From: Dipteris shenzhenensis
Taxonomy: Eukaryota
Direction: 5' to 3' (one strand)
Length of the DNA stretch: 64,000 nucleotides
NCBI GenBank assembly: GCA_047967505.1
Contig: CM106538.1
Below the pieces are notes generated by a model. The model saw nothing but the letters and a program-made list of their open reading frames with translations. It did not search any database and was not told the origin of the DNA. The stretch's first letter is position 1, and the number at the start of each line of letters is the position of its first letter. Below, in pieces: positions 350-36,694 of the stretch. The position numbers were made by a program, and so were the translations under genes.

Positions 350-491
350 TTAGTCATCCTTGTCCACCACTCCAAGACACCCCAAGATGTTCTCATGCGT
401 GTCTAAATCCAATTTGAAGACACCCTTGCCCTTCTTTCGTTGTGGCACAGGTTGCATCTGGAACTTAATAGCTCTTACTAGATGAGAGTAC
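350..491 (-). pseudogene. C-terminal fragment of Sola2-like transposase, separated from the rest by the Gypsy insertion
   Basis: Minus frame reads YSHLVRAIKFQMQPVPQRKKGKGVFKLDLDTHENILGCLGVVDKDD*. It joins in frame across the GTAC TSD to ...SRTAACV from 11926 onward. Confidence 0.65.
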
Positions 492-1476
492 TATTAACTA
501 GAAAAGAATTCGAGGCATGATGCTAGATGCGAGGCATGGCGACACTCGAGGGCCATAGAGGAAAAGGGAACATGAGGGGAGAAGCATTAACATAGGTGGG
601 GAAAAGGGATTAAGAGAGGTGGGAATGAAGAGGGGGGACTATGGCACAAGGGGTAAGGAAGAGGGGGAAGAGGAGCATGTACATGATGGGAGGTGGAATG
701 TAGAGAAGGAGACATCAAGGGAAGAGAGTCATGCTTTATTTGAAAGGAAGGATGGGAGGAAATCAAAGTACTAGCTAGGTGGCTTTACAAGAATGAGCGT
801 GTTCCCATCCTTTTATAGCCAAGAGAGGAGGTCTCCCAATAAATGCATCCTCCCACATGCATGGTGTGTGTGGAAGAGTCTCCCATGTGGGTTAGGTGGG
901 TATGCACTCTCAATTGTGTGCGACAATCCTTTGCCTCATTTTTCCACGTAAATCAAACCCCATATCCCAAGTCTAAGATACTCCCTTGGTCTCTCTCCAA
1001 TTTTATAATATGTTCAAACATCTAGAAGGACAAGTGGAGGGTTGGCACAAGGAGTCTTGCCACCTCATCCTACTTTCCCCATTAAATAACTTGCACTCTT
1101 GGACTATCTATACCCTCCCCACATGGGCCTATCCTACATAGAGGGAATAATCCAATATAATATCCATCTCCACCTATTTTATATTACTTCTCCCATGGTC
1201 CTTGAGCTATGTCTCACTAAATGTAGCCATGGGACTGCATAGGTGGATGGGTGGCACATAGAGGAACCATGCCACCTTAACATGTTATAATACTACTACC
1301 ATGGATTATGTACAACACACCTTATGGGTCCTCTTACGTGGAAGGGTGGCACATGGTCATGCCCTGCCACCTCAACCCTGGGCCCTATGCACACCATATT
1401 GTATTATACTATTGCCACACATACAAGTACACACATATATTTATGCCTTTTACCTTGGTCAAATTTATCCATAACA
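492..1476 (-). repeat. 3' LTR of the Gypsy element
   Basis: Collinear with 8425-9056 plus 11553-11925. Starts (minus) TGTTATGG right after the PPT and ends GTTAATA. Confidence 0.9.
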
Positions 1477-1490
1477 GTTCCCCCCCCAGG
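1477..1490 (-). promoter_or_regulatory. Polypurine tract of the Gypsy element
   Basis: Minus strand CCTGGGGGGGGAAC immediately precedes the LTR TG. Confidence 0.8.
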
Positions 1491-1499
1491 CAGGGAATG

Positions 1500-4400
1500 C
1501 ATAGCATTTCCATGCTTGGGACCATCACAAACAAAGAAGGGCTTGAGATAACACTTGTTGATCACCTTCTTGCCATATGGATCATGCAGCTCCTATACTT
1601 GTACATACCCATTGCTACGTTCCTTGATGACTTTGTATGGAAGGAACTTTTTATCCATTTGGTGGTCCAATTTGTTATCAAAGCATAGCACAACATCTCC
1701 TTCAGCAAATTTTCTTTCCCATCCCTTGCGAATCTTAGCATCCAAGCGGGCCTTTTGTCAGTTCTTTTGGATATCTGTTTGATGGAGTGCAAGGTGTCGA
1801 GTTTCATCTAGCTTCTCAAGTTGTACCAACCTGGCCTCTACATGTTCATCTTCTGTCATCCTCTGTTCTTGTGCCAATCTCAAGGCCAAAATCTCTATCT
1901 CTAGTGGTAAAATTGCCTCCATACCGTACACCAACTCAAAAGGAGTGTGACCTATAGATGTTTTATGGGTGATGGTGTAAGCCCACACGGCTTCAGTGAC
2001 CTTCTGATCCCACTGGCTCCTGTTCCCTGTGGCCATTATTCCCATGGATTTACAAAGGAGGCCATTGGTCTGCTCCGTTTGTCCCATGGATGTTGGCTAA
2101 TAGATGCTAGAAGTGCGATGATAAATACCCATGTGATCCATGAGCAACTCCACTGCTTCATTTAAGTTAAGAATGGACTCCCATGGTCAGATACTATTTC
2201 CATGGGTGTCCCAAACCTTGTGCAAATAAGTTCAAATATGAAATCTGAAACTGCCTTACCATTTGCAGTGGGGAGGGCGATAGCTTCAGCCCACTTAGTG
2301 ACATACTGAGTGGCTACTAGAAGATACTTCTCTTTGCAGGCAATCATGGGCAGGGGCCCAACAACATCTATTTCCCACTTCTGAAATGGATGGATGGACA
2401 TCACTAGGTGATGCTGTCTAGGACGCAAAACCTTCCTACCAAAGAATTGGCATGGTTCACAAGTTTTGCAATACATAGTGACATCCTTGAACAAGGTCGG
2501 CCAATAGTATCCAGCATGTAAAATCTTCTTAGCTGTACAATCACCGACACAGTGGCCTCCACAAAATCCATTATGATAATGCTTCAATACCTTAGGTACT
2601 TTATTTGCATCAATGGCCCATCTTAGTACCCCATCCATGCCTTGACGGTACAACACCCCATCGAAGATCTCGAGTGTAGCGGCTACTATTTCTGTGGATC
2701 TTCTTTCTCTCATAGCTAGTACTTTCTGGAGGAAAGGAGAAAGCGGTCAAAAATCTATAGATACCACCATACCATGGGTCCCCAACTTCTATGGCCACTA
2801 CAAGGGTTACATCGAGGCACTCCTCCAAATCAATCAAAGCATTCTTCAAGTTGGAACAACTCCCCTTTACAATTTTGAAGGAAAAATCATATTCTTGGAG
2901 AACTGCCAACCATTTGGCCAACTGGCCCATGGGACTTGGTGATTGAAGAACCTGCTTTGCAAGACCATTGGTAGAGACTATAATGAAGGAGTTTCCATCC
3001 CCATAATGCTTAAATTTCTCAATATAGAAAACCAAAGACAAGGCATGCTTGTCAGCTTCAGAGTAGCATCATTTAGTTTCGAGCAATTGTCGAGAAGCAA
3101 ATCGAATGGGATACATGAACCGATCCTCCCTTTGCTAGAGAAGAATACCTACCAGAGTCTGCTCACCAAACCCAAGATTGATATAGAAAGTTTTTGACTA
3201 ATCAGGTTTGCATAGAATGGGTTCTAAAGCCAGAGCACTCTTGATTTGTACAAACCCATGATCACAATCCTCATCCCAAGAGAAATCAACCCCATCTTTT
3301 AATAGAGTAGTCATGGGTCATGTCAAAGCAGCATATTGATCAATGAAGCAATGATAGTACCCTACTAGATTGACAAATGAGCATACCTAACATTTGGTTG
3401 TTGGTGGGGAGAGCTTGAGGATAGCTTCTACCTTCTCAGGGTCAGGCTTGACACCCTCTGATGAGACAATATGCCCTAATAACCTCCCTTGAGTGGCTCC
3501 AATGGTGCATTTATCAGGGTTGAAGCTGCCATTCGCATCATTGTCCCTTTGGAAGGCCAACCTAACCTTCATGACGTGCTCCTTACATGCCGAGAATATA
3601 CAGAAATCATCTAAAAACACCTCCAAGAAAACCCCCAAATAAGGAGCAAACACCATCTGCATAAATCTTTGAAAGGTAATAGGAGCATTGGTGAGGCCAA
3701 ATGGCATTTCTTTGAATGCAAACATCCCCCAGGGTGTGGCAAATGTGGTTTTAAGCACATCCTCCTTGACAATTCTAATTTGATAAAACCGGGAGTAACC
3801 ATCATAGAAAGTATACATCTCATGACCACTTACCTTCTCAAGAATGAGGTCTTGAAAGGGCAGAGGATGATGGTCCCTCTTGGTGGCCACATTGAGTTTC
3901 TTATAATCGATCAAACCCACCACTTATTGTTTTTCTTTGGGGTGACTACTACTGGTGAAACCCATTTAGTATTGTGAACCAAAACAATAAACCTAGCTTC
4001 TACAAGCTTTTGCAACTCTAAGCGCAAAGCGTCGATCTATAGGGGCCCTAATCTTCGATACTTCTGAGCCACTAGCTTAGCATCAGGCTTCAGCTCTATC
4101 TTGTGTTCTATGGCAGTCACATGGCAAAGGTGGTGGTAGCTAGTTACGAAGAGGTCAGGGAAATCTTTGAACATTTCTAGGAACTCATCTTTCTCACTCA
4201 AAGTGAGGTCAATGGAAAGCATAGATTCAAGCTGTTGAGAACTAGCTCTACGGGTGGTGGGATCGGAGACACCCCCATCATGTAAACTTCTTCCTCTGAG
4301 AACTCCTCCCCACCATCTGAATCTTCCATTGACTCAGACACTGAGGATGAGAGAGTATCACTGTCTTGCTCCTTTTCTTCTTCTGGTTCACTGGCACCTA

Positions 4401-6140
4401 GTTGCACTAGGATCTTCTTCTTTGAAGCACCAAAAGACATGTGTCCTGTCTTCCAATAGCTGACTCCATCACTCTTTCTCAACCATAGTCTCCTGAGTAT
4501 GGCTAGGTAACTCTTGCATGTATCTTCAATGTCCACTACATAGAAATTGATAGTGATGGGCAAATCCTCAATGACTCCCAGGGTGGTGAGCCGTCGACCA
4601 TCTAGTACCTTGATTCGAGTGGAGGAACACCTGGTGCATTTCAAATTTAGCTTCTTCATGATATGGGGCACCATGATATTACATGCAGCTCCCCCATCAA
4701 CACACACACTCTTGATACAGCAATTATCTATGATGACATCTACTATATGCGGGTGCCGATCAACTTTTTTAGAGATAAAAGAAATCTCTCATACCTTTTC
4801 CTTTTTCTTGCTCTTCCTTGTTGAGAGCCCTTGCTATAGCTCATGTCTCACCTTAGGACTTAATGCTATTAGTCGAGGAAGCGTGATGCTCAAAGACCGA
4901 TGAGCAAGGTCCTGAATGATGAATAGTCTTCTTGCCCTAAGCCGATAGGATAGTCTTCTTGCCCTGAGCCGATAGGAAAATCCAAGGGCGACCACTTACT
5001 CCTACGAGATCTTTTAGTTTTCTCTATTGGTGGGTTTGCCATCTCAACATCTGAGGGCTCTGAGAAGGACACCTTCTTCTTGGGGTGGCCCAGTCAGTCC
5101 ACGGTTTGGAGAGGGGTCCGAGGTAGTACGACTTCTGTTCCTGAGGTCAAGGACCTCTACGTCAGAATCCTCGGTGCCTGATTCACTTAGAAGATTCACC
5201 CTTGGAATATTGGACATTCGGTGCGATAGTGACCCTTCTGGTGGCACTTGTAGCACACAACATTGGCACATTCTCTTGGAGGGCGATTGGCTTGATTTTT
5301 GATGCCCACCATCTCAAGCCGAAGATCATTTAGGGCCTTGGCTAGGTCATTGACCCTGGGTTCTTTAGTAGGAGGGGCCAGGGGAGTAGGAAGGAGGGGG
5401 GCTCGTGGGCAAGCCTGGGAAAATCTTCCAAGCAGAAGTTGAGGCTATACTCCTTGTTGAGGGTAAGCATCTAAGGGAGGACCATACATTTGAGGTGGAG
5501 GCGGTGAATACATCCCTGATGGGGGGTGGGGGTATGCCCCAGAGTTGGACCCCCCAGGTTGTTGTTGCATGAATTGAGGGGGTTGCGGAGGGACAACCGT
5601 CTTCTTTGAAGCGAGGTCATATTGAAGTTTATCAAACTTTTGAGCAATCTCATGTGCTAGCACCATGGTTTCCGGATTCTCCCATTTAAACTTGAGGAAA
5701 AATTCATCACTTGCTCCTACTACAAGGTAGCCCAGCACATGCTGAATCATTCTAGCTCAAAATCTAGCGTTTTCCTCCTGCATGGAAATTAAACGGTCTA
5801 GGAGCATGGCCGCTCGATCCACATATCGACATGTCGTCTCACCTTCTGACTGCTTCAGGTTTGCCATCTACAGGTACACATTCTCAAGCTCCTCTTCTTT
5901 GCCGAAATACTCGATCATAGCTACTGTTAACCTCAGCCAAGTTTGGCGAACGTCTTTGGCTTGCTTCTCGTGAGGCTTCTCGTACCACACTTGAGCCAAA
6001 CCCTCTAGAAATGTGGGAAGAACCAATAACATTCTATCTTTAGTGAGAAAGTTGAGAGAAACACAATGGCACTTGAAGGCCACAAGATACTCATTTGGAT
6101 TTTCCTCAACCTGACCACACAACATGAGAATGTCAGCCAT
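1500..6140 (-). pseudogene. Gypsy gag-pol, fragmented by stops and frameshifts
   Basis: gag MADILMLCGQVEENPNEYL (6140); protease CVDGGAACNIM (4707); RT YKKLNVATKRDHHPLP...MPFGLTNAP...FLDD (3923-3387); degenerate RH GQLAKWLAVLQEY; integrase HNGFCGGH...GYYWPTL...CEPCQ, DVVGP, IVSDHGS, TPFELVYG. Confidence 0.95.
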
Positions 6141-6367
6141 GCTTGGAAAATTAAAAATAGAGAGACAAAATGAGGCTTATCTATTGGCAAACAATGGAAA
6201 GAGGTAGCTTAAACTGAAAATCAGGTGAAGATACATCGACAAAGCACACATAGGCAGGGTAGGGTGTGACTAGTGTATTGTGAAATACTATACGGGAAGA
6301 ATCCTCAGCATATAATAGCTCATAAATAATTTTAAAAGGACCAACCCTCATGATATTGCATCCATCT

Positions 6368-7101
6368 TTACAAGTGAGGGTTAGAGACACGGCGTTGCAT
6401 GAGGTTGTTCATCAAGGCGAACAAGAATGCCATGACAAATGTCAACAGTTGGAGAGCTTGCACATCACCTTCAGCTTCTTCTAGTTCTTGTAGTCACCAT
6501 GCTATTTCTTCAAGGAGTGTGCAGTTTGGCATCCTTCTTTTGAGCAATGTCCTTAAGAACCTTTTTGATGATGTTCCGAAGTCGGTAAACTCGTATCAAA
6601 TATGCACAACATTGAGTTTCATGATGACCATAACCTTTGCTTTCTTTACAAATGATCACCCTCATTTGTGGATTACAGCTTTGTTGGGGTGGTGCTTCCA
6701 CTCGTTTCATGCGTGATTGAAGTACAAGCTTCACGTGCTAAGAAATCAGCAACTAAATTTTGAGCTCAAGGGATATGCTGAATTTTTACCTCGTCAAATT
6801 GTTGGCAGAGTTCCAATGCTTGTTGATGTCGTGGAATCAAGCCTTTGCTCTGCACCTTCCACTAACTTGTTCACACACGAGTTGAGAATCTCCTTGCACC
6901 TCAAGTTCCCTGACGTGATATTCTTGCACCTTTTGTATCCTAAAAATGAGTGCCAAGTACAACTTGGTTGCAAGTACTTGCAGGTGCAGACTTGCTATAA
7001 CAATACACCTCACCACCCGGTGAAGTGAGCTTCACACCCACACCAATAGCCTTGGTCGAAGTTTTGTATGCTCTGTCAAATTGAAGAATCCAAGATGTCA
7101 T
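6368..7101 (-). pseudogene. Extra ORF upstream of gag: archaeal-type RNase H (aRH/RVT_3-like), zinc-knuckle-like motif, coiled coil and hydrophobic C-terminus
   Basis: Manual translation: MTSWILQFDRAYKTSTKAIGVGVKLTSPGGE...STCNQV[frameshift]YLALIFRIQKVQEYHVRELEVQGDSQLVCEQVSG...VKIQHIP*AQNLVADFLARE, then CKESKGYGHHETQC and ELEEAEGDVQALQLLTFVMAFLFALMNNL. Confidence 0.85.
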
Positions 7102-8400
7102 TACACCAAGTCTAAAATCCGGACATCCCAGGTTTCTTGGTAGTCTAAGATAGGCAGAACGAGAGGGTGGGGAGAATTCAATACTTGAGCAAGATGTTCA
7201 GCACCAAATAAACTTGCAATCCTTTGTTGATAGTTTTATCTTTAGACCAAAAAGAATTACAACTTGAAGCTCAAAATGTGGCACAAAGGGTTGATTAGGT
7301 ATAAAGGGATTCCTTGGTTGAAACATTACCGACCATAATCGAGCCCTAGAAACCTTTGTAGTGAGGTTGAGAAGAAATCATAAGACGAGCTCATCCATAG
7401 GTATTAACAAGCAGATGCACCAAATCTCCCCCCAAGCTTGTGGATCATCCCACCCTTGGAAGAATGTCACCCTTTTAATTACCTCTAATGCAACAAGTAG
7501 CTCAATCACCGCACAATGAGTAGAATTGGAATCAAAGCCCTCCTAGTGTATCACTAGTTCTTCACCTTGAATCATCCATGGTGTATCATCCCACCCGTCA
7601 TCTCCTTGAGAAATGCATTGTATAGTCAGTTGTTGAAGATCGACATGAAGATCAAGAAAGATATCTCACCAATTGGTAGCTGTAATGAGCAAAGCACCAA
7701 GCACCAAATCCTTGAACTTGTCGAGAAGTGACATAAATATCCACCCTCCTTGTGTGGCGTGCATCCAAGGAGTGAACTTGAAAAAGTTTAGAATTTTCAA
7801 TCTAGTATGAGATATGAATAGAGCACATGAAATGAAGTACTTTTGCTTTTTATAGCAAGAGGAAACTCCCTATGGTAAGAGAGTTACAGTTCATGAGATT
7901 TCAACATATAAGCAATATCATTACACTTTCATCAATTCCTATTTGTTGGCCCATTGGTAAGTCTTCCTTTTGTGAATGGCGAGGTCTTGGGTTCAATTCC
8001 AACTCCTTTATAAAAGGAGAGGAGAGGAGAGGAGAAGAGAAAAAGAGGGAGAAGAAGACGAAGAGGTGAACACGAGATCTGTTGCAGAATTTGCAAAGAC
8101 TGCAGGTCGCGACCAGAAGACTCGTTGGGCTCGGAGAAGATGCGCGGTGTGGGCGCAGTGCACACAAGAAGAAGCACGGCGCGGTGCGTGGGTGTGGTGT
8201 GCATAGGAATCCAAAAGACATGCAGGAACCTAGAAGATGTGCAGCGCAACAACAGAGAAGTTCTGTGATTACATGGATGGAGAACCGGAAGCAGATGTCA
8301 CAGATTGGAAGTGTAGAAGATGCCACAGAACCGCACACAGTCGTAGGAATAACCAATGTCGATGGAATGATTATATGCTACCACTAGCCATGGAGACCTC

Positions 8401-8420
8401 GTATCCCAACAACCACACCA
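8401..8420 (-). promoter_or_regulatory. Primer-binding site, probably tRNA-Asp type, decayed
   Basis: Minus strand TGGTGTGGTTGTTGGGATAC lies 4 nt from the LTR end and resembles TGGCGCCGTTGCCGGGGA, mostly by C>T changes. Confidence 0.55.
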
Positions 8421-8424
8421 ATTC

Positions 8425-11400
8425 TATTAACTAGAAAAGAATTCGAGGCATGATGCTAGATGCGAGGCATGGCGACGCTTGAGGGCCATAGAGGAAAAGG
8501 GAACGTGAGGGGAGAAGCATTAACATAGGTGGGAAAAAGGCATTAAGAGGGGTGGGAATGAAGAGGGGGACTATGGCACAAGGGGGAAGGAAGAAGGGGA
8601 AGAGGAGCATGTACATGATGGGAGGTGGAATGTAGAGATGGAGACATCAAGGGAAGAGAGTCATGCTTTATTTGAAAGGAAGGATGGGGGGGAAATCAAA
8701 GTACTAGCTAGGTGGCTTTACAAGAATGAGCATGTTCCATCAAGGAATAGCCCCCTCCTTTTTTAGCCAAGAGAGAGGGTCTCTCATAATAAATGCATCC
8801 TCCTGCATGCATGGTGTGTGTGGAAGAGTCTCCCATATGGGTTAGGTGGGTACGCACTCTCAATTGTGTGTAACAATCATTTGCCTCATTTTTCCACATA
8901 AATCAAACCCCATATCCCAAGTCTAAGATACTCCCTTAGTCTCTCCCTAATTTTATAATACGTTCAAACATCTAGAAGGACAAGTGGAGGGTTGGCACAA
9001 TGAGTCTTGCCACCTCAACCTACTTTCCCCATTATTTAAGTTGCACTCTTGGACTATGTTGAGAGTTGTGGTGCCATGAGCACTTGTAGAGCAAAGGTAT
9101 GAGTAAAGGAAAAGCTGCCACATGCCATGAAGGAGATAACCCACATGTGAGCAAGCAAATGGATGTAAGTACCCTTACCTATAAAAGGGAGGTTCATTTG
9201 AAGTAATATCAATCAAGCACTTTGTACTATCTCAAGATTCTCTTTATGAGTCCAAGCTAATCTATCTTGGAACCTAATTGACTTGAGGTACATGTCATGA
9301 GCACTCTCTTCATCATGTTTTCACATAGGTTCCATCCACCTTAGAGTGCTCCATAGATCGTGAGACATACATGTTTTGTCATGGTATCAGAGCATAGGTT
9401 TAGCTCTCCTAGTTTAGCTCATTAGTAGTTCACTAGGATTGCTTCATTCCTAGATTAGTTGTAGGCATGTCTTAGGAGCACATGTTTTCTCCTAGGTTAG
9501 TTTTAGTTTTAGATTGAGAACAAATTTTCATCCCTAGAGAGAGAAAATTTCCATCCATTGATTCCTTCCATTGCATTGAGGGAATTCCATCATTGAGAAA
9601 GTAAGAGAGATCCATTGTGAGGGATTCAATTCTCCAAGGAGAGAAATATGAAGAGTGCAAAGTAGTTCTGTGTTTTTTGAGAGAGAGAGATTCAGTCTAA
9701 GAAAAAAAGAGAGATATGGATTTGTTCTCAGGTAGTAAGTACAAACAATGAGCTTCCTGACTATCAAATGGCACACCTCTACTCGTAGTAGCTTTAACTC
9801 CCAACGATCAAATGCCTTCTCAAGCTCCTATCTATAGCGCAACCCTATCTGCCATCGTAGCCTTATCAATAGGCTTGCAGTGCTTCCATTTGACAGCTCT
9901 AGAGAGGTGCTCCTATCTCCTAACGACCAGCTACGACCTCCATAGCTCCCAGTGACCCAGCCTTCATGGATAGAGCAATGCTACGACATCAACAGCTGCC
10001 TCACTGCAAGCAATGAAGCTGCTCTGCAATGGCCACAATCTGCATACGCCCGAATCCCATGCTCCTCTATGACCAACGGCCCCTGCATGGGTGACTCCAC
10101 CGACTCTGCGGAGCCTCATAGCTCTCATAGCACCTAGTTACTAGAGCTCTGAAGCTCGTGATGCATAGCAGCACTCCAATAAACCAGCCCAAGCTTCCTG
10201 AGTAGCAGCACTGAAGCAAACGAGTGCAGCTCCAACACACAGCCACGGACAGCGCCTCAAGCAGATGCACAGCCAACAATGTAGGTCATGCTCCAAGCTC
10301 TCGCAAGTCTCCAATTCCTCCTCCACGAGCCCGAATTTGTAACAGCAGCGACTCTCTCTCCATCGAAGCTGTGGTCGTCGCAAGTTCATCGTAGAGAAGC
10401 TTCAAGCCTCCTTCTTCCTTCTCCAAGGTCTCAGATAAATGCCACGTGGCAGGATAAGAATTAACTATGGTTAAATTTAACTTAGCTTGGTCAATGGTTA
10501 AGTAAACACAAGTCCTGGTCCACTCAACCCACACTAAACCATGGTTAGATTTAGGTTATGGGGTTAGTTAAAGTGCCACCTAAGCACTCAGCACCCTTGC
10601 TAAGCACAGTCTTGCAAGCTGCATGTGAACAGCCTCTGCCACATCATCAAAGGCTTTCTTCTTCATAGAATCTTTGACAAGCCATAACTTGCAATCCAAG
10701 AAGAATTTGCTCATGCTCCAAAAAGGAAAAGTGATCGTCTTTTAGAGCTCTACGCACTTGTTAAGTTAGAATCATTGTATGTAGTTAGACACTGCCAATA
10801 TTGAAAGAAATCAATTGGTAAGACCTTTGCAACAAATGACAAATCAAAGCATGAATGCACACATCATTGTCATAAGCATGCCAAAACCTCAAGTGCATGA
10901 GATGACCATAGCAAAAAGCATGGCATCCACACATAAAGCATCAAGGCACATGGAAGAACAAAGCATCATGCATGAAGTTACACAAGGAAGAAGATTGGAG
11001 ATTGAAGAACCAGCAGGTCAACTACGTGGAATCATCATCAAGCCATGGGCAGAATGACAGAAACAACATGTATTGAAAAGCAAAAACCTTGCCAACCTTG
11101 CCTATATTTTGTAAATCAAGCCTGACCACCTGAGAGTAGCCATGTAGGCACCCAGGGGAGGATTTGATCTTGTAGCCTCACATCTGACCACCTTGCAGTA
11201 GCCAAAGGATTATGGCACCAAGGGAGGTGTTGAGAGTTGTGGTGCCATGAGCACTTGTAGAGCAAAGGTATGAGTAAAGGAAAAGCTACCACATGGCATG
11301 GAGGAGATAACCCACATGTGAGCAAGCAAATGGATGTAAGTACCCTCACCTATAAAAGGGAGGTTCATTTGAAGTAATATCAATCAAGCACTTTGCACTA

Positions 11401-11925
11401 TCTCAAGATTCTCTTTATGAGTCCAAGCTAATCTATCTTGGAACCTAATTGACTTGAGGTACATGTCATGAGCACTCTCTTAATCATGTTTCCACATAGG
11501 TTCCATCCACCTTAGAGTGCTCCATAGATCCTGAGGCATACATGTTTTGTCAGACTATCTATACCCCCCCCACATGGGCCTTTCCTACATGGAGGGAATA
11601 ATCCAATATAATATCCATCTCCACCTATTTTATATTACTTTTCCCATGGTCCTTGGGCCATGTCTCACTAAATGCACACATGGGACCACCTAGGTGGAGG
11701 GGTGGCACATGGAGGAACCATGCCACCTTAACATGTTATAATACTACTACCATGGATTATGTACAACACACCTTATGGGTCCTCTTACGTGGAAGGGTGG
11801 CACATGGTCATGCCCTGCCACCTCAACCCTGGGCCCTTTGTACACCATATTATATTATACTATTGCCACATACAAGCACACACATATATTTATGCCTTTT
11901 ACCTTGGTCAAATTTATCCATAATA
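8425..11925 (-). repeat. 5' LTR of the Gypsy element, interrupted at 9056/11553
   Basis: 8425-9056 matches 492-1106, and 11553-11925 matches 1102-1476. Confidence 0.9.
9057..11552 (+). mobile_element. Non-autonomous LTR retrotransposon with Copia-like signals (LARD/TRIM-like)
   Basis: 325-bp LTRs TGTTG...TGTCA at 9057-9381 and 11228-11552, about 9 substitutions by eye. PBS TGGTATCAGAGC (tRNA-Met) at 9382-9393; PPT AAGGGAGG before 11228; 5-bp TSD GACTA (9052-9056, 11553-11557). The 1.85-kb interior has no recognisable gag/pol. Confidence 0.92.
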
Positions 11926-13320
11926 GTACACACATGCAGCAGTTCGTGATTGTGGCCTCTCTTGGATGCTTTTTTGTACCAAAAAGCTCCGACTACTATA
12001 TCCCACTTCTCATAGGTTGTTCCATAATTAGCCTCAAATTTTTCCTCAACCTTGTACTTAGGTTTTGTGTACTGCAATAGAAAGTATGCATCATCTTCTT
12101 CATTCTCCCCAGAATCTACGACAACTACAAAGTTATCCCCCTCTTCCAGACAATCAGTGAGTTCATCAAAACTCTCCCCAAACTATGGCGAGACATTTTT
12201 CTCTCCATTGTTTGTCACTTCATTTGAAGGTAGAGGAAAAACTTGAACTCGTTCCCATGTCTTCATAGTTGCAATGTTCTCACGATCGTCATGATCCCCT
12301 ATGATGCGTGTACTATAGTTCAACAAGAAAGTTTTCTCGATCTAATCAGTTGGTTGTTTGAAAAGCCCCATATGACTTGCAAACCACGAACTCCTTTAAT
12401 TTTCTCGCAATCATTCCGGTTTCTCCTTTTCACTTCATGGAACACTCTGCGTACTACAGTATTCTTAAGGCTTTGGTTAATGTATGTTGAATGTGTGCCT
12501 GTGGAGAGGTTGATTGTAATCCATGTTACAGCATCATGGGCATCATTGAGTTTTTCTTGAGGGCATTCTAATTGGCGTTTAAATAGAGCTTGCTTAATAA
12601 CATCACCGCATCCATCATGTTCACCCTTGCCATGGCTAGACCCAAAGAAATTCCACATCATGTCTAGACCGATCAGGGATTTGAACCTTGAGATGAAGTA
12701 GAATCCACATGCTGATTTAAATTGAGACGCCACACCATTTGACCACACCCAATATTGTTTTATATTTTCTACATGGGGATTTTCCTTTTTCATCCATTCC
12801 AATGCAGTAGAAAAGCATGCTGCACAAATAGGGTGTCATGTTCCCTATCATCTGAAATGTAGAAATAATACATGCATTGCACTGACCTGGACTCTTATGA
12901 GTTAGCAAGCAGACTGGCATCAAGCCTGGAGGAATCAAGCAAATGACTGTACGTTATATGCACAAGAATTATTATCTACTTGTTGTACCAGTGAGCACGT
13001 TGTATCTCACCTTGTTCTTGAAAATAATAATTTTTTGCAAAATCTATGATAGATACAATAGTGTCACGGGGAAAATTCTCAAGGCACGTACTGAGCTACT
13101 TATCCTGCTAGTTGGCCATGAAACTGTGAAGCACATATTTTGGGATGGATAGAACCGTGTGACCTATATACAAGCTCCCTTGGTTCGATGCTCTCCTCCA
13201 TTTTAGAGCATCGTTGTCTTCCCTCATTTCATTTGGATAGACATTAAATGTCTTCTTCTTTGGCTTTAAATTGCAACACTTGCATGTGCCACGAATGCAT
13301 TCAATCATGTGCCACCCACG
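11926..13320 (-). pseudogene. Sola2-like DDE transposase, decayed
   Basis: WSNGVASQFKS...WNFFGSSHGKGEHDGCGDVIK (12320-12802) and upstream CIRGTCKCC. The SDG..SQFK / HGKG..DG pattern is recalled as Sola2-type. Confidence 0.7.
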
Positions 13321-16550: not shown

Positions 16551-17200
16551 AATTTGAGGTTCTAATCATGCACTATTGTTAGCTTTTATATTTGTATTTG
16601 AATGGTTATGGCCGCTACCTATAATCTTTTGTTTAAAGCTCTTAGCAATTGCTGAGTTTTTATAAATGTAAGATCCTCTGTTCAATTTTTGCTCGGTATA
16701 AGTTGATAATTTTTATATAACCTGTTATTGGACGTAAATGTACATTGTAATCTCTTTTGCTTAATTTTTACTCGATATACTGTACTTTTTTCATCATTTA
16801 TATTTATTGCAACAAGGAATAAATACCAAGAAAGAAGGACTACAATTTCCTTGTTTTATGACCAAAATAGTGCTAAAATAACTCCAACGACCCCACCATT
16901 GTGGTTGCATGGAGATACATATAGAAAATACAATTAAACTTTCAAAAAGTGCAATTGACGATATGGCTCCCCTTTACGTGCAAGGGCCATATCGACATGC
17001 CATTTCAATCTAGTGGCATCCTGGATATTGTATAATGCACGTAGATATTGCCCTTGGCCCTAAAGGGGACCCCTCAAGGGCCATATCATCAATTGAATTT
17101 TGCTTGGTTCACGGACATGCCCTGCCACCTCAACCTTGGGTCCTTGCTACTTCATATTATATTCTGCTAATGCCACACACACATTTTCACTTCTACTTAT

Positions 17201-21700: not shown

Positions 21701-22699
21701 TCAGGAGGTGGCCCCCTCTCTGATGAGCTCTCACTACTCATTGTCTCCACCTGCACACATCCACAACCATCCCCCCTAGTCAATTCAAACACTTAAATAC
21801 CTAAATCTCCCAAATTTCCTTAAACCCACTAATCCCCTCTCTTTCACCAACCACCTCGGGGCCTAAATCCCCCCTAAATCCCTTCAAACATCCACTCACC
21901 CCACGAAATCTCCCATCCCCCAAACCCCCCCTAAAACCCTAAACCCTAAATCTTCAGAAAACCCTTGTTTCGTCAGTATGGGTGTCATTATATATTGACG
22001 ACCATACTGATGTCGATACTGACGCTCTACTTTTATATACCCACTTTCATACCGATGCCCGTATTAACGAGTTATAAGAATTAAAAACCCATGCTATTCG
22101 TCCCGTGATGCCGTTCAATTTTTCGTGCATTCTCCTCCCTCGCTTTCACTTTCAGCTCATGATCACCTGCCTCCTCCCTCCCCCTCCCACCTCTCCATCC
22201 TCTTTTACATTGACCCTCTACACCTACAAGACTTGTTGCAGCTCTGTCTCCATCTCAAGGTAAGAAATCCTCTCTTCCCCTTCTATTTCAAGTTTGTTTG
22301 GTTTCTTTGTCTTTGTTTCTACCTCTCCTCTTGTTTCCCTTCCTCTACTTTCACTTTCCCTTCCTTTCTCTAAACTTTCTCTCCTCCTTTCCTTTCCTTT
22401 TCTTTCTCTAAAGGAAGAAACAATACATGAAAAACAATCATGAAAGAGAAGAGTATGAAAGCTCTACCTATTGTTTTTGTGCTTTCTCCTTTCTAGGCTT
22501 CTCTTTGTCTCCTCAATCCATACCCTTTGGAATGATACTTCTCCAAACTCCTTTCATTAATTAGTTTTCTTTAAATGGTATGTTTCCTCTCTTTTATAGG
22601 GCAATGAACACAAACCACCTCTTCTTTTGAGCGGGATCATCCGGTGGCAAGACACGTCATTTCCAAGTAAGAACGTGCTTCCTCTCTTTTCTATTTTTC

Positions 22700-24730
22700 T
22701 TTTTGTGAATGCATTGGCCTACAATGATGGGCATAGGAACTTTTCTCCTCTCTTCTCCCCTCTCTTTTCCTCTTCCATCCTCTCTTTTCCCTTTCTCCTA
22801 TTTTCACATCCTCTTTCTCCCCCCTCTCTCTCTTATTTCCTCTCTTTTCCCTCCCTCTTTTCCCCCTCTCTTTGCCTCTTCCATCCTCTTTTTTCCCCTC
22901 TCTTTTCTTGTCTCTTTTCCTCTCTTATCCCCTCTCTTATTTCCTCTCTTCTCCCTCTCTTCTCTTATTTCCTCTCTTCTTCCCTCTCTTCTCTTTTTTC
23001 CCCTCTTTCTCCCCTCTTTTCCTCTTCCATCCTCCCTTTTCCTTCACTCCTCTCTTTCCCCTTTCTCTTATTTTCACATCCTGTTTCTGCCCTCTCTCTT
23101 TCTCTCTTATTTCCTCTCTTTTCCCTCCCTCTTTTCCCTTCTCTGTCTTGTAGAGAAATTGATCAGTGACTGCTGTCTACAGTCCCACTGATTGGATGTA
23201 AGGCACTACCTCTAAATCGTGGAGCACCTCGTAGGATATGGTATTGTAATAGTAGCATCAGTAATCTTTGGTGTTGCATTTGACTTGTCAATGGATAACA
23301 ACCCCACTATATTCATCAAGCCAGTCTTGTCTGAGAGGTGAGAATTGGCTGACGTGGAAATAGCAGATGAAAAGCAGTGATTAAGTCATTTTGTAGCAAA
23401 ACCTATAAAGGCATCAGGTTTCCTAAAGCCCAAGCAAAGTATAGTGAACCAACCTTGCTTGTGTGAAGTGATGGATTTGCCATAGCCAGAATCAACCACC
23501 ACAACATCGATGCTTCGAAATTGAATGAACAAATCTCCATAGAACCCCACACCATATGATACACCACAAACATGCCAGAAGTACTCCATCGTCTCACTAC
23601 AACGATGAGCCACACAGAACGTTAGAGAAAACCTACCTATGCCTATATCACACAAACAGAATACAAACAATGCATGCACCAAAGGCGGCCATCATCCATC
23701 ACAAGGCTTGCACAGACAGCCAAGGAATGCCAACCCATGCGTGCATGACTTCATAATCTGCTCCACACATCCACAATCCACTGCAAACACCACTCCCCTC
23801 TCTTCTCCTCTCTTCTCTTATTTCCTCTCTTCTCCCCTCTCTCCTATTTTTTCCCCTCTTTTTCCCTTTTCTTTTCCTCTTCCATCCTCTCTTTCCCCTT
23901 TCTCTTATTTTCACATCCTCTTTCCCCCCTCTCTCTTTCTCTCTTATTCCTCTCTTTTCTCTCTTTTCCCTCCCACTTTTCCCCTCTCTTATTTCCTCTC
24001 TTCTCCTCTATTCTCTTATTTCCTTTCTTCTCCCCTCTCTTCTCTTTTTTCCCCCTCTTTTCCCCTCTCTTCTCCTCTTCCATGCTCTCTTTCCCCCTCT
24101 CTTATCACCTCTCTCTTTCTCTCTTATTTCCTCTCTTTTATCTCGTTTCCCTCTGTCTTTTTCCTTCTCTATTCCTCTTCCATCCTCTCTTTTCCCCTCT
24201 CTTATCTCCCCTCCCTCTCTTTACCCTCTCTTTTCTCCCCTCTTTTTTGCCTCTTTCCCCTATCTTTCCCCTCTTTTCCCCTCTCTTTTCTCCCCTCTTT
24301 TTTGCCTCTTTCCCCTATCTTTCCCCTCTTTTCCCCTCTCTTTTCTCCCCTCTCTTATTTTCTTATTTCCTCTCTTTTCTCTCCCTCTTTTTCCCCTCTC
24401 TTCTCTTTTTTCCCCTCTTTTCCCCTCTTTTCTCCTCTTCCATACTCTCTTTCCCCCTCTCTTCTCCCCTATCTCTTTCTCTCTTATTTCCTCTCTTTTC
24501 TCTCTTTTCCCTCCCTCTTTTCCCCTCTTTTCGTCTTCCATCCTCTGTTTTCCCCTCTCTTTTCTCCCCTCCCTCTCTTTCCCCTCTCTTTTCTCCCCTT
24601 TGTTCCCCCTCTTTCCCCTCTCTTTCCCCTCTCTTATTTTCCACTCTTCTCTTATTTCCTCTCTTTTCTCTCTTTTCCCTCCCTTATTTTCCCCTATCTT
24701 TTCCTCTTCCATCCTCTCTTTTCCTCCAAG
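22700..24730 (+). repeat. Long polypyrimidine (C/T) low-complexity tract, interrupted by a ~650-bp unrelated insertion (about 23144-23792)
   Basis: Near-pure C/T with recurring units TTCCTCTTCCATCCTCTC and CTCTTATTTCCTCTC, followed by a purine-rich block at 24770-25070. Confidence 0.9.
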
Positions 24731-27143
24731 TATGCCTTTAGAGCTTTCTCGCTAGGGGCCATGGGGAGTAGTTGAGAGAGAATGACGAGAAGAAAGTGAG
24801 GAGAGAGGGGCAAGAGAGCAATGAGGAGTAACAGAGTGGAAGGAGAGGAAGGACGGGAATGACAAGATGGGAGTGGTGTGAGAAGGGATATAGCAGGGGA
24901 GAGGTGTGAGACAAAGAAGAGAGGAGGGGAGACTTTAAAGATTGGGGAGGATGAAGCGGGACAAGGGAAAAGCAAAGATTCAAACATACAAAAGGTGAGG
25001 AGGATAAAGAGGATAGGGTGATAGGGGATGTGATTGGCACAGATTGTGGAATAAAGGAGAGTGGATGCAATAAAGTTTCCTAGAATTATCTTTTTGGAAT
25101 ATATTGGCTTGTGCGATGTATATAATTTTTTGAATAGAAGTGAATGTAAATGTAGCTTGTTTGTACCCTGAATTCTTTTATAGATCTTGAATGAGTGCCA
25201 CGATATGATTTGTAATGTGTTTCATATGCCTGTATTTGGTTCTTTTTTTTCAAACTGATTAAAAATGGAACACCCTCCTCCACGATATTCTTCCATAAAC
25301 CCCAACCCGGTTCCCCATGTTGCTATCATTAAGGGACATTGGATAAAGTTTAACATCAAAGTGCATGCGCGTGGGTGGGGTCCAAACCGATTTCACATGG
25401 AGCGGCATTTTCTAAGGGAGGCATAAAACAACCTATAGGATCTCCGTAAGCTTTGGAGAGACCGCTTTGAGCAACTACTTAGCAAGCAGGACCGCAACTA
25501 ATAGTCTAAGAAGAGTATAACTATATATTAGAAGAAGTGGAAGATGATGTCCCGAGTGACCCGTCTAGTGTTGAGGAGGAGGAAAGCACCTTAGATAGTA
25601 ATGCAAAGCAGTAGACCTCCTCCTCTCTTTTGAAATTTTTGAAGAATGTCTCTTGTGGAGATGAATTTTGTTGAATAATACTATTTTTGCACTTGTTTTT
25701 GTATATGAAATCTCTTTTGGAGATAAAATTTGTACCTGAACACTCTTTTGGATCTAAATTTGGTATATGAATACTCTTTTGGATACATATGTTAATGTAA
25801 CTTATGGAGATATATGATAATATACAATGAAGCATTAAGTAAATTGTCTTTTCATAGTTTTAGTAAATTGAACTTGAGTTTTAAGTAGTAAATTGTCTTT
25901 TAAGTAAAGTGTAAGTATTTATTAGTTTTTCACTTCTTACCCGCTCTTGTGTTCGTGTTTGTTTTCTTGTTTGTGTCTATGTTTGTCCAATCTCCCCAAA
26001 TTAGACATGTCAGCACGTTGCACATCTGGAGAGCACAGACCCCGTGATCATGAGCCCCTCATAGGACAAGACATCATGGGTTCTACTCTCCAAAGGACTT
26101 TCTTTCCACTCAGCCAAATCCTGAGGGGCCTACCCCTACGACTACCCCTTGGTGGACTTCCCACCATAGGCCAACTCCTCTCAGGCCTACCCCTGCGACT
26201 ACCCCTCGAGGAACTCCTTTGCTACTAGTAGCCCATGCTCAACCCATGGCTTCATCGAGAGTGGCGACGAGTTTGTTGCATCCATGAGAAATGCAGAGGC
26301 AACGAGATTCTTCTCTCTCCTGTCCAAAGGACCTCGGCTATTCCCTCTCCTACACCCCTTGGGGGTAGATCCAGGACATTGATGGCTTTACCTACTCAAC
26401 AACCATCCCCTGTAGCCCCTTCTGGGGGGTCATCACCTTGGCATACCCATCCAAAAAGAGTAGTAAGGGTCAAGGCTATTGTGGTGGCACGAGGGGTATT
26501 GACGAGTCTGTACACTCACATCCCTATAGGTCTCCCCTTCCTCATGAGATGCAATACCAGTCAGGTGTCTCGGCCTCTCCACACACAAGATGCAACACCC
26601 TAGAGACCACTCGCTCCTTAAGTGCTCGCTCCACCCTTTGCTCTAGCTCTGCTACTCCATCCACCATGAATCCTTCAGACTTTGTTTTTCCCATAGTGTC
26701 TCTTTAAGCCATTCATTTATGAGGCTGCTAGGTGTGAGATCAGAGAGTCATCAAGTTGTGTTTCAGATCAAACAGTCATCTACAACTCGAAGCATCTTCC
26801 TTGTTTCATGGCATGACTCTAATTATTTATTTTTCCTTTTAGTCTCGAGCATTTTCTAAATGACAGAAGCTTAGAAATGACAGCTGAAAGGGTAATGCAC
26901 TACTTAAAAGAGTTTCCATGTAAACATCGAAGCTTTTAACAAAAGCTTTTATGTGAATCCACATGTTAGCTTACATGTTTAATAAGTGCACTCTGTGGTA
27001 GTTTAAGTACTATGCTTTAGATCAGTATGGACAGTTTAAAGTCTTAAGTCAGAAGACTTGAAATGATGTAACAAGCACACAAAGGATGGGTACAAACTTT
27101 GCAAGATCCCCTAAAAATCTATTGTTTGTGAAAGAGGATGAGT

Positions 27144-28708: not shown

Positions 28709-29274
28709 CTTGTTCGTGGTAAGGAGCTCAAGAAAGAAAGCCAAGTTTGTGGTGTCCTGGTAAGAGGACCAGTGTTGCTTTCCTACTTCGAGTTTGGGAG
28801 CAAATCTCTGCAGGTAGCACAGCCAAAAGTGCAGGAGTGCACTGCTTCAGATTGAGAGGCCCTTCGCGGTGCGGCGAGAGCGCAGTATATGCTGCGGGAA
28901 AAGGGCGAAGCCCTAGGTGACGTTATTTTTTTGATTTGAGGCCGTTTCGGGGCCCGTTTTGAGGGGAAGTTCTTCGCAGGCACTCAGAAAAAGGCCCTGT
29001 TTTTGCTGTGCGACCACTGCGCGCGGCCAGTCGGTGGAAAGGTGCCACAGAAACTGTGTCGTATGCCTGTGTGCAGAGATATTGGGAGTTGCAGATTCAT
29101 GCCTGTTGCCTGTTGATGCAAAATCGTCACTAGGAAGTGACTGTGTGGTGAAATACCACTTTCGTCAGTGTTGCAGATCTGCCCCTGTGAGGCTTTTCAC
29201 AGAAGTTTTGCTATTTGCCCTTGTGAGGCATTTGCTGTGTTTACAGGTTGCTGTTGCAATTCGTGATTTGTAAA

Positions 29275-32200
29275 ATGTCTGAGAATCTGTCTACCATTGT
29301 CAGTGAGAAGCTTGACAAGAACAACTTCCAAGCATGGAAGTTCAGGATGACAAACTTCCTTATGGGAAAGGGAGTTTGGGATTACATCAGTGGTGAAACT
29401 GCAGAACCAGTTTTGGGTACTGCTCCCACTCCTGCTGAATTGAAGGCTTTTAAGGAATGGCATGAAAAAGCCAGAAAATGCTTGTATTGGCTATCTGTTA
29501 GCATTTCAGATTCTATGATTGTGCATATACAGGATCTAGAGACGCCTAAGGAAGCATGGGATACATTGGTGAAGCTGTATAGCACAAATACCAAAGCACG
29601 AAAGATGCAGCTAAAGCAGGAGTTGCACAATGTGCAAAGGAAAAATCTGAATATAAATGAGTATTCCTTGAAGGTGAAAGGCCTTGCAGATTCTCTTGCC
29701 TCCATTGGAGCACCTGTTGATGATGAGGACTTAGTGTCCGTGACCTTGAATGGTCTTGGGAAAGATTATGCACAATTTCGGACATCCATTGGAGTCCGTG
29801 AAACATTTCCTGATTTTCAGGAACTTATTGCTCTCTTGCTGAGTGAAGAGCAAAGGAATGGTGGTTCAGCCACCTCAACTTCTCAAGAGACTGCTTTCTA
29901 CTCGAATACAGGTAGAGGCAGGGGTAGAGGAAGAGGCCGTTCTGGAGGCCGTGCAGGAAATCAGAACCAACAGCAACAACAGGAAAACCAGTCCTATGGA
30001 GGAGGACGTGGTAGTTCTAGAGGCAGGGGGAGCCAAAGAGGCCGTGGTTCATGGCAAAGGAACCAGCAAGTAAATAGCAGCACAGAATGCTATTATTGTG
30101 GAAAGCCTGGACACAAGGAGAATACATGCTATAAAAAGCAGAATGACATCAAAAGTGGAAAGTTGCAGCAAAGCAACTATGCATCATCAAGTGGGCATGG
30201 TGACGACAGAAATGAGCACCTTTTTGTGATGCAGCATATGGTTAACTCCATGTCAGGAGATGCTGCAGCTTGCAATGATGTTTGGTATGTTGATTCAGGT
30301 GCCTCTAACCACATGACCAGTCATGGTGAGTGGTTTCATGATGTCAAAAATTTGGATAAGCCAGGTTATGTTGAAACAGGTGATGATACTGCGCACCCAA
30401 TTACGCAGGTTGGTAAAGTGCCATTGGCTATGCAGGATGGCAAAACAAAGTACTTGGCAGATGTACTTCATGTTCCAAAAATCACTAAGAACCTGGTTTC
30501 AGTTGGCCAGATGGTTGAGCAAGGTCTGCAGGTTAGATTTAATCCTGATGGATGCTTCGTTGAAGACCTGAAAAATAAATGCCGCTTGGTTGCGAAAGGC
30601 AACAAAAATGGAAGAATGTTCACCTTGGATGTTGATATGCCTGAGGTGAAAGCTGCTATGTTTGCGCATGGGAGAGGTGTCATTGCAGATATTGAGATAT
30701 GGCACAAGCGCATTGGGCATGTGAATATACAAAGGCTGAAATCTATGCAAACGAAAAACATTGTTGCAGGTTTGCCTAAATTCAGAGTTGAGGGAATGCA
30801 AAAGGTATGTGAAGCATGCCAAATGGGTAAGCAGGCCAGACATGCATTTCCCAAAAATGCTAAGGTGAGCAAAAGACCTTTGGAAGTGATCCATTCAGAT
30901 GTTTGGACAACCAAAGCTGCTTCTATTGGTGGATGTCATTATTATGTGACGTTTATTGATGACTACACTAGGAAGGTGTGGATTTATTTTATGAAGCACA
31001 AAAGTGAAGTGTTCAGCCACTTCAAGGCTTTTAAGGCCATGGTTGAAAAAGAGAAAGGTGTGCATATTAAAGTGCTGAGATCTGATGGAGGGGGAGAGTA
31101 CTTTTCAGAAGAATTTTGTGAATATCTGAAAGAACAGGGAATTCAAAGGAAGTACTCATGCAGGTCTACCCCTCAGCAGAATGGGGTTGCAGAAAGGAAG
31201 AACAGGCATATTGCAGAAGTAGGACGGGCGATCCTAAATGAGAAAAACATGCCTGATTATTTTTGGGCTGAAGCAGTAGCAACTGCTGTTTATATTATGA
31301 ACAGAACCCCCACTGCAGCTGTCCATGGCATGACGCCTGAAGAAATGTATACAGGCCAAAAACCAGATATTTCTCACTTGAAGGTATTTGGTTGCATAGC
31401 TTATGTTCATGTTCCTGATGAGAAGAGAACAAAGCTGGATCCAAAGGCAAAAAAATGCATCTTTATTGGATATGCTCAGCATCAGAAAGGGTATCGCTGT
31501 TATAACCCTTCCACCCGCAAAATGCAAGTGAGCAGAGATGTGGTTTTTGATGAAATGAGTAGCTGGTATGCACCAACTGTTATGGTAGGAGATGCAGATG
31601 CAGGAAATGGGAATGCTGCAATAAATGCAGAGCAGCAATCTCAAGCCTTGAGTGGACCCAGAGAGTCCTCTACTAGTGGATCTAATGCATGGACAGGGAG
31701 ATTGAGATCTAGTGAATCGTCACATGGCAGCCCTGATAGTGTTGTGCAGGTATCACATAAGGGAAAAGAAAAAGTGGACCATGCTCCAGTGTTTGATGTG
31801 TCTGCTGGTAGCTCTCATGTTGATGGAGAGTCAAGCGGCTCTGAAATGAGCCTTGATGAGGAACTTGGGATTCCTTCTGTTGTTACACCTGGTGCAAGGA
31901 AAGGCAGGCATGATTTAAAGACTCCTGCAACTGATCCAGTTGTACGGAGGTCCACTCGTATTAAGTATCCAGTTGACAGGCTGAGATATGATGGGTATAC
32001 AGCACATCACTATGCTTATATGGTCAAGGTTCTAGAGGAGCCAGAGCCCACATGTTTTGAGGATGCAGCAGGGCATAAAAATTGGGAAGCAGCTATGGAT
32101 GAAGAGATGGCTGCCTTGGATGCAAACCACACTTGGGATTTGATGCCTTTGCCTCATGATAAGAAGGCTATTGGCTGCAAGTGGGTTTACAAAGTAAAGC

Positions 32201-35504: not shown

Positions 35505-35600
35505 TGACTTCTCCCCTCACGTTCCCTTTTCCTACATGGCCCTTGAGCGTCGCCATGCCTAGCATCTAGCCCCTTTTCTCAAATTCTTTTCTAGTTAATA
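35505..35600 (+). repeat. 3' end of an LTR related to the Gypsy LTR at 492/8425, in the opposite orientation
   Basis: CTTCTCCCCTCACGTTCCCTTTTCC...CGCCATGCCT...AATTCTTTTCTAGTTAATA is the reverse complement of the 492-585 region. Confidence 0.75.
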
Positions 35601-36694
35601 GTAGCCATCTCGAGAGTTTCACTACCAAGATCTTGACTAACAAGCTGCTCTAGACTAGTTTGGGTGCTTTCAAGTATAGGCTCTAACTGCTCTAGACCAT
35701 TATGGGAGCTTTCAAGTATGGGATCATCACTTCTTGCTAGTACATCATAGCATGGATGAAGCTGCGAGTTGTCAACTACAATCTCCTCACTACTTGGAAG
35801 TACATCTACTTTTCTTATTACTGGTACATCCTTAAGTAGTCCACTTCCCTCTCCCTTCAAAATAATCTCTTTATGAGGTTTCATGCTCTGCATTTGGACC
35901 TCTATTGCTTTCCCTTTCCCTTCCACTGCAGCAATTTATTTTTCTTCCTTCTTATTGCTGCCTTCTTTTATGACCAATGGAACCTCAATGCTTCTTTGTA
36001 ATCTCTCATCCATTCTCTTCTTTGTGCGTAGTTCTGGGTTTGAGTTCTCTGATGTAGTAGGCACATTTTTGCACATTTAGGAAGACCTATTTAATTTTGT
36101 ATTAGGGATTATTGAGTCTTATTTTCCCTAATAAATCCCACAAATAAGCATATAGTTAGTGCCTACCTAATTGACACATCACTGCACTCACACGATTTTG
36201 CATAGGCACATAATAGATTGCATCAATAATAGTACCACACACTTTCATTCCATACTCTCAAAGCATGCAATGAATTCACAAGCAGGACAAGAAGCTATGC
36301 CAAAACTCAAGATGAATTGGCAAAAGAGTCTGCAGCCTCAATAAAACGAGACCCCCGCCAAACATCACAACTGTCTCCTAAATGTAAAAATATCAGACTT
36401 GCATACAAACTTATCCTACAAGCTCAATGATATGGGTGCAATCACATCCAACATGTATGCAAGATACAAGAAATGCCAGCCTCAACAACGAGACCTCCGC
36501 CAAACCTCTTCCCAAGAAGATTGAATGGTAGAGTCCACAGCCTTAGCAATGATATCCCCTTTGAAATTCACAACCGTCTACCCCTCCTCAAGAGGAGATA
36601 AGCTTCCTGACTACATACCATAAATTGTATGGTGCAAAAGCATTATAGTAGCAATGACTCGCATGCCACAAGCTTAATAGCCCACTGGTATTAC

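Follow-up and report, generated by a model that had tools for sequence, protein, structure and literature searches.

Among LTR retrotransposons, an archaeal-type RNase H (aRH) is a mark of the Tat lineage. In the passages of Biryukov and Ustyantsev (2023, PMC10508981) that deal with element architecture, all aRH-bearing LTR retrotransposons are Tat elements, and five Tat structures are defined, of which structure #4 has an independent aRH ORF ahead of gag. This structure is recorded there for the clusters Tat B (four mosses) and Tat C (Selaginella tamariscina); for Tat D, the cluster of ferns, the main text gives structure #1 only. According to the same passages, the native RNase H (RH) is degraded in all aRH-bearing structures, and the authors raise the question of how an aRH that is located outside pol functions. 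Prokopeva et al. (2026, PMC13468544), in the part that concerns this layout, named the arrangement with upstream aRH 'pre-capsid'; in the main texts of both papers, ferns appear with the in-pol aRH layout only. Ustyantsev et al. (2015, PMC4408406), where the position of the aRNH is treated, describe it at several sites within Pol, the extra ORFs upstream of gag encoding other domains. A full-text literature search for aRH upstream of gag and for aRH in Tat, fern and Ty3 elements yielded no further relevant account; per-species supplementary tables, where a fern record of structure #4 is possible, lie outside such a search.

We analysed a stretch of 64,000 nucleotides of DNA (the window), in which an element of this kind occupies approximately positions 491-11927 of the minus strand. 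Very probably, it is an old, dead representative of the Tat lineage of Ty3/gypsy elements that belongs to the published structure #4, or pre-capsid, type and whose free aRH would act in trans. In the direction of transcription the order is LTR, PBS, leader of about 1.3 kb, aRH ORF of 154 codons, spacer of about 0.5 kb, gag, (PR), RT, degenerate RH, INT, PPT and LTR. It shows these features of structure #4: an RVT_3-type aRH with its own ATG and stop ahead of the gag ATG at 6140, no room for an aRH in pol, and an apparently degraded native RH. An earlier note, made from the letters alone, had proposed a Ty3/gypsy element with an archaeal-type RNase H encoded by a stand-alone ORF 5' of gag, and the layout supports this. 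The note had also taken the architecture for an undescribed one, which it is not, as it was published in 2023 (PMC10508981) and again in 2026 (PMC13468544); Tat structure #4 (PMC10508981) is precisely the kind of published lineage with the same arrangement that the note had named as an argument against itself. The architecture itself is thus not new. Coordinates of the features are listed in Table 1.

Table 1. Parts of the aRH-bearing element and of the element nested in it, by position in the window.
Feature	Position	Strand	Evidence
3' LTR of Tat-type element	491..1478	-	direct repeats with 8424-9057 and 11553-11927
Integrase region of pol, broken into frames	1758..2746	-	tblastn of P0029 residues 1198-1458, and ORF pieces
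Native gypsy-type RNase H, apparently catalytically degenerate	2835..3190	-	Pfam RT_RNaseH 30.2 bits, piece 2613-3068
Reverse transcriptase	3390..3923	-	Pfam RVT_1 68.3 bits
Putative protease region	4198..4788	-	position between gag and RT, and D-G-G-A-like motif
gag, decayed, ATG 6140	5199..6140	-	zf-CCHC and weak Retrotrans_gag
Spacer, aRH stop to gag ATG	6141..6645	-	no Pfam family in three frames at E<=0.1
Stand-alone aRH ORF (archaeal-type RNase HI, RVT_3), decayed	6646..7101	-	about 154 codons when intact
5' leader, about 1.3 kb	7102..8423	-	PBS 8420->8397
5' LTR, interrupted (8424-9056 and 11553-11927)	8424..11927	-	direct repeats; split by nested element
Nested small LTR element in 5' LTR	9057..11552	.	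terminal direct repeats, target duplication

The 3' LTR is 91.8% identical to 8424-9057 over 635 nt and 94.4% identical to 11553-11927 over 377 nt. A matching duplication of 4-5 nt flanks both ends of the element, the exact LTR ends being ambiguous by 1-2 nt, and a G-rich polypurine tract stands directly upstream of the 3' LTR on the minus strand. The PBS starts with TGG, 3 nt inside from the end of the 5' LTR; apart from two C>T changes, it resembles what we take to be the complement of the 3' end of plant tRNA-His. No Pfam domain was detected in the three frames of the leader. In gag, Pfam recognized zf-CCHC (22.4 bits, 5199-5444) and weakly Retrotrans_gag (5871-6176), and a database protein, P0073, could be aligned to gag from 6110 to 5586 with 50% identity, its start lying close to the ATG at 6140. 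The region assigned to the protease gave no match in Pfam, and the assignment, made from position and the D-G-G-A-like motif, is putative. Taken together, the paired LTRs, target duplication, PBS, PPT and the order gag-(PR)-RT-RH-INT are those of a Ty3/gypsy element. Comparison of the window with itself revealed no second internal copy, only LTR-like fragments at 35508-35603 and 17110-17183.

The split of the 5' LTR is explained by the insertion of the nested element, which is 2496 nt long, has terminal repeats of 325 bp at 97% identity and TG..CA ends, and is bordered by a 5-bp target duplication (9052-9056 = 11553-11557). It is no part of the aRH system. Its LTR bins display the highest summed contig depth in the DNA run X1 (approximately 3300-4800), so that it probably represents a very abundant non-autonomous family. 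At the outer borders of the whole insertion, four contigs of run X1 join the left flank (488-491) to the right flank (11942-11949) with 35-40 other letters between them; possibly, these are unoccupied copies of a repeat that hosts the insertion. Elsewhere in the window, an uninterrupted ORF of 1467 aa (29227-33630, plus strand) encodes a Ty1/copia-type gag-pol, and the element containing it is apparently intact and probably young. Long, low-complexity open frames rich in S, L, P and F, with strong negative GC skew, occupy 22600-24775 on the plus strand and look like a simple-repeat tract, not a gene.

Next, we examined the aRH ORF. In a three-frame translation of the minus strand from 7260 to 6100, it begins with an ATG at 7101 and ends with a stop at 6648-6646. 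All five RNase HI-like motifs that had been read there before are present in order on this strand: WILQFDRA, GVGVKLTSPGG, STCNQ / YLALI (with a frameshift between the two halves), ELEVQGDSQLVCEQVSG and HIP-stop-AQNLVADFLAR. The reading frame from the ATG (frame 0) gives MTSWILQFDRAYK...GVGVKLTSPGGEVYCYSKSAPASTCNQ; after the first shift, frame 1 continues with YLALIF...ELEVQGDSQLVCEQVSG; after the second, frame 0 is resumed as WKVQSKGLIPRH...KIQHIP-stop-AQNLVADFLAREA. One frameshift falls near 6960 and the other near 6862; internal stops interrupt the ORF at 6768-6766 and 6675-6673. The description of the ORF as ATG-initiated and now decayed was therefore correct, and the frameshifts account well for its absence from the ORF track, as had been supposed. 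The catalytic Glu position has been lost to the first frameshift, and the three Asp positions are kept. Precisely at this first frameshift, two contigs from one DNA run differ from the window by a 2-nt indel.

The profile search that had been recommended for 6368-7101 did find RVT_3 (PF13456), at 28.3 bits (cut-off 21.6), on the C-terminal piece of the ORF, where it covers profile positions 77-123. The middle piece matches profile positions 45-80 at 18.7 bits, below the cut-off, in an order collinear with the C-terminal match; from the N-terminal piece, scanned alone against Pfam, no match was obtained. When the intact relative P0003 (154 aa) was compared with the window by tblastn, it covered 7101->6649 end to end with an E value of 4e-56, a homology far beyond chance. 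Judged from its sequence, the RNase H remnant at 7101->6646 is genuine.

Relatives of this remnant exist in intact form in public assemblies. A database search with its single-frame read-through (P0002, stops written as X) led to two clusters, the representatives of which, P0003 and P0004, are both 154 aa long and carry PF13456 and PF00075. At 90% identity the clusters comprise 8 and 25 members, i.e., 33 sister proteins. Among the 23 of these 33 that are listed, 14 are exactly 154 aa long. Their contigs range from 596 to 8128 nt (0.6-8.1 kb), so the common length is set by a real start and stop and not by contig ends; the stop is equivalent to that at 6648-6646 of the window. In a sample biased towards called ORFs, the DEDD residues D9, E48, D72 and D122 are invariant in all 14 full-length proteins, which vary at 30 of 154 positions and share 89-99% pairwise identity. 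One sister protein, P0007, finds RNase HI chains of solved structure (4e19 at 2e-17, also 3hst and 2ehg/3aly), the acidic residues falling into register, and its nearest Atlas clusters are RVT_3/RNase_H families (score 0.95). The solved chains, which we take to be stand-alone type-1 RNases HI of archaea and bacteria, resemble the window family in consisting of a single domain, approximately 140-150 residues long and built around a DEDD core (E values from 2e-17 to 4e-12); they differ from it in being cellular enzymes, whereas the aRH of the window family is encoded by a retroelement.

The pol region was compared with P0029, a pol protein of 1458 aa from the fern Adiantum nelumboides that holds RT, RH, aRH and INT in one chain and ranks among the named proteins nearest to the window RT. 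By tblastn, its residues 647-994 align to 3911->2835 and residues 1198-1343 to 2683->2165; the portion 1198-1458, identified by Pfam as Integrase_H2C2 and rve, reaches from 2683 to 1815. Opposite the 203 aRH-bearing residues in between (995-1197), the window has only some 150 nt, or about 50 codons (2835 to 2683), and the window pol is consequently without an aRH. In alignments of the native RH, the positions of the expected acidic motifs are substituted in the window and equally in Adiantum P0028 and P0030. We assigned the catalytic columns of these alignments from what we presume to be the family motifs. The native RH thus appears degenerate, in agreement with the published 'tether-like' degradation. 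Both the tblastn of P0029 and the RH alignments bear out the view that pol contains just a degenerate RH beside the integrase and lacks an aRH.

These results suggest how active copies of the family may work. The free RNase H of 154 aa would be the product of the first cistron on the genomic RNA and would supply RNA-strand degradation for reverse transcription in trans, the pol-encoded RH presumably being no longer capable of it. Translation of gag and pol could then be reached by leaky scanning, by re-initiation or from a separate transcript. The window copy itself is non-functional. It might be objected that the aRH ORF, while belonging to the family, is a functionless relic and that the host or helper elements provide the RNase H activity; the doubts of the 2023 authors themselves about the function of an aRH outside pol (PMC10508981) speak for such a view. 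We consider it very improbable, given that the four catalytic residues and the length are constant in 14 intact variants differing at 30 positions, which is suggestive only, the sample being biased as described, and given that the native RH is degenerate, as it is in all aRH-bearing Tat elements.

In one sister read-through, P0120, the first 74 residues align to the window leader from 7326 to 7102, directly upstream of the aRH. Logan contigs of the DNA run X1, placed at a likeness of at least 80%, provided 1564 pieces that cover all 30 bins of the window between 400 and 12000. Summed depth amounts to 386 and 365 in the aRH bins, which is within what the gag and pol bins show; this measure is not equivalent to a copy number. 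None of the Logan pieces listed (228-1897 nt) bridges aRH and gag in another copy, and the linkage of the two in other copies rests on the shared leader, the contig coverage and the window copy. Among sequencing runs, the search listed a single DNA run, which shared a small fraction of words (0.05), and no RNA run. Scans of JGI metagenomes with P0007 and with P0108, the nearest stand-alone relative, gave pattern matches, none of which was confirmed. The 33 sisters, the leader of P0120 and the coverage in X1 of all bins show that the copy is not a one-off, and they argue against the one-off capture that had been considered as a possible refutation; the family is abundant, and its member in the window is dead.

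Plant LINEs and host genes commonly contain RVT_3 domains. The RNase H piece could accordingly be foreign, either part of a plant L1 LINE that became nested here (an aRNH closes the ORF2 of such LINEs) or an RVT_3 gene captured from the host, and confined to this copy. The top-ranked matches that were scanned fit such an origin, as they contain several RVT_3 domains and, in two cases, a SAP domain as well; moreover, an integrase like that of P0029 occurs in only 4 of the 150 best representative matches, and one of these 4 matches the native RH of P0029 as well. The surroundings of the ORF tell against it. The aRH is an ORF to itself, opened by an ATG at the beginning of the domain and closed by a stop, and neither extra repeats nor a target duplication surround it. 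The setting of a plant L1 LINE aRNH is not seen, no LINE RT or zf-RVT adjoining the ORF in the 1.3-kb leader or the spacer (Pfam) and the ORF having an ATG of its own. In addition, there are 33 near-identical sister proteins, one with the same leader, repeat contigs of run X1 extend over the entire stretch, and a pol without another active RNase H means that the element needs one. A foreign origin confined to this copy thus seems to us highly unlikely, and we retain the aRH as a regular part of the family.

According to the earlier note, the ORF extended to 6368 and included a CCHC-like knuckle, a coiled coil and a hydrophobic C-terminal helix, so that its product might be tethered to membrane or particle. 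Knuckle-like, charged (coiled-coil) and hydrophobic stretches are indeed present as letters between 6640 and 6370 of the minus strand. The knuckle-like string reads C-x2-S-x4-H-x4-C, with the second Cys replaced by Ser, and lies in another frame than the aRH; the coiled coil and the hydrophobic stretch lie in a third frame, which is that of neither the aRH nor the knuckle. As a zf-CCHC knuckle this string is not supported, given the Ser and the lack of a match at E<=0.1 in Pfam. The scan of 6141-6647 in three frames against Pfam, which began at 6647 and hence inside the knuckle-like motif, likewise found nothing at E<=0.1. A database search with the read-through of 6737 to 5871 (P0072) returned one protein, which covers gag only and leaves the spacer uncovered. 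Positions 6141-6645 are therefore treated here as a spacer, with no coding content that its sequence would support. The longer ORF is not upheld, since sisters stop at the equivalent of 6648-6646; the knuckle, coiled coil and helix belong to other frames beyond this stop and to no Pfam family; and the tether is left unsupported, as intact sisters have 154 aa and end ahead of these stretches. An aRH ORF whose C-terminal zinc knuckle, coiled coil and membrane helix tether it to RNA, particle or membrane is hardly credible, the only point in its favour being that the C-x2-S-x4-H-x4-C string and the charged and hydrophobic stretches exist, while they sit in two frames other than that of the aRH, are matched by no Pfam family (zf-CCHC included) at E<=0.1 and are covered by no database protein, and 14 of the 23 listed sisters finish at residue 154, at the same stop that is found in the window.

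Affiliation of the element was assessed separately for RT and aRH. The best named matches of the window RT are proteins of Adiantum nelumboides (51-59% identity). In a tree of 40 rows, built from the 39 of 46 matches whose alignment covered at least 150 query residues and containing no named Tat or Athila references, the window RT falls into a clade with 100/100 support together with all 9 Adiantum rows, outside the Adiantum subclade. The same clade holds one unnamed Logan protein and P0068, an unreliable row on a very long branch. In the Adiantum proteins of sufficient length, an aRH is located inside pol, between RH and INT. Membership in Tat is by phylogeny indirect, suggested via this aRH-bearing Adiantum clade.

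The aRH offers a different picture. The window family is only 33-39% identical to the aRHs of Adiantum pol. In a tree of 148 rows and 146 columns, it stands apart from the 7 pol-embedded aRHs and is grouped (SH-aLRT 88) with short JGI metagenome proteins annotated as 'ribonuclease HI', each found on 7-21 contigs. This tree, from which rows with a domain match of fewer than 100 model positions and the family fragments P0074 and P0120 had been dropped, was made by a quick method and is weakly resolved, with many unresolved forks, so that it serves as a lead only. In the representative search with P0007, the matches other than these two family fragments are 27-49% identical. All 10 top-ranked ones that were scanned have two or three RVT_3 domains, two of them also SAP; with such a make-up, rank does not reveal kinship.

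Some of these proteins merit description in their own right. P0075, P0081 and others consist of two or three tandem RVT_3 domains, two with an N-terminal SAP domain. P0108, P0152/P0224 and P0154/P0230 (JGI) are stand-alone 'ribonuclease HI' proteins of 100-146 aa, each recorded on 7-21 contigs, the longest reaching 24 kb, and are the nearest aRH relatives outside the family in the quick tree. Their recurrence on multiple contigs points to a further repeated element that carries a free aRH.

A more specific reading can be formulated, which we regard as possible, if rather doubtful. The element would be a pre-capsid Tat element with an RT in sister position to fern (Tat D-like) elements and with an aRH closer to the short stand-alone RNases HI of metagenomes than to the aRHs of fern pol. 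It would then represent either an old lineage with stand-alone aRH that survives outside mosses and clubmosses, or an independent second origin of the layout, by fresh capture and not by relocation from pol. The fern-like affiliation of RT, combined with the separate placement of the aRH, may be what is novel here.

The element is a natural example for the question put forward in 2023, namely how an RNase H encoded outside pol serves reverse transcription. Many intact natural variants of the 154-aa protein are at hand, which could be expressed and assayed. If the host proved to be a fern, the known range of the rare upstream-aRH layout would widen, and this would bear on whether aRH moved within Tat or was captured more than once.

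The element can further be compared with known systems. Tat/Ogre-type elements with an eORF of plant mobile domain (PMD) and coiled coil (lineage IV in the relevant part of PMC4408406) share with the window element a sense ORF between leader and gag, and hence the same problem of gag translation; unlike here, their eORF encodes the plant mobile domain, not an RNase H, and the aRH is kept in pol. The fern Tat D elements of structure #1 (P0029, P0030, P0033) have their RT in the 100/100 clade with that of the window, exhibit the same degeneracy of the native RH and possess an RVT_3 aRH. In contrast, their aRH lies inside pol between RH and INT, where the window pol has about 50 codons, is only 33-39% identical to that of the window family, and is placed in a group of its own by the quick tree. 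Closest are the elements of Tat structure #4, the pre-capsid type. From their Tat B and Tat C representatives, compared by description, the window element differs in that its RT is nearest to named fern proteins (51-59%), perhaps a reflection of which proteomes have been deposited. With structure #4 as such it has in common the independent 5' aRH ORF ahead of gag, a pol without aRH, the degenerate native RH and the Ty3/gypsy backbone.
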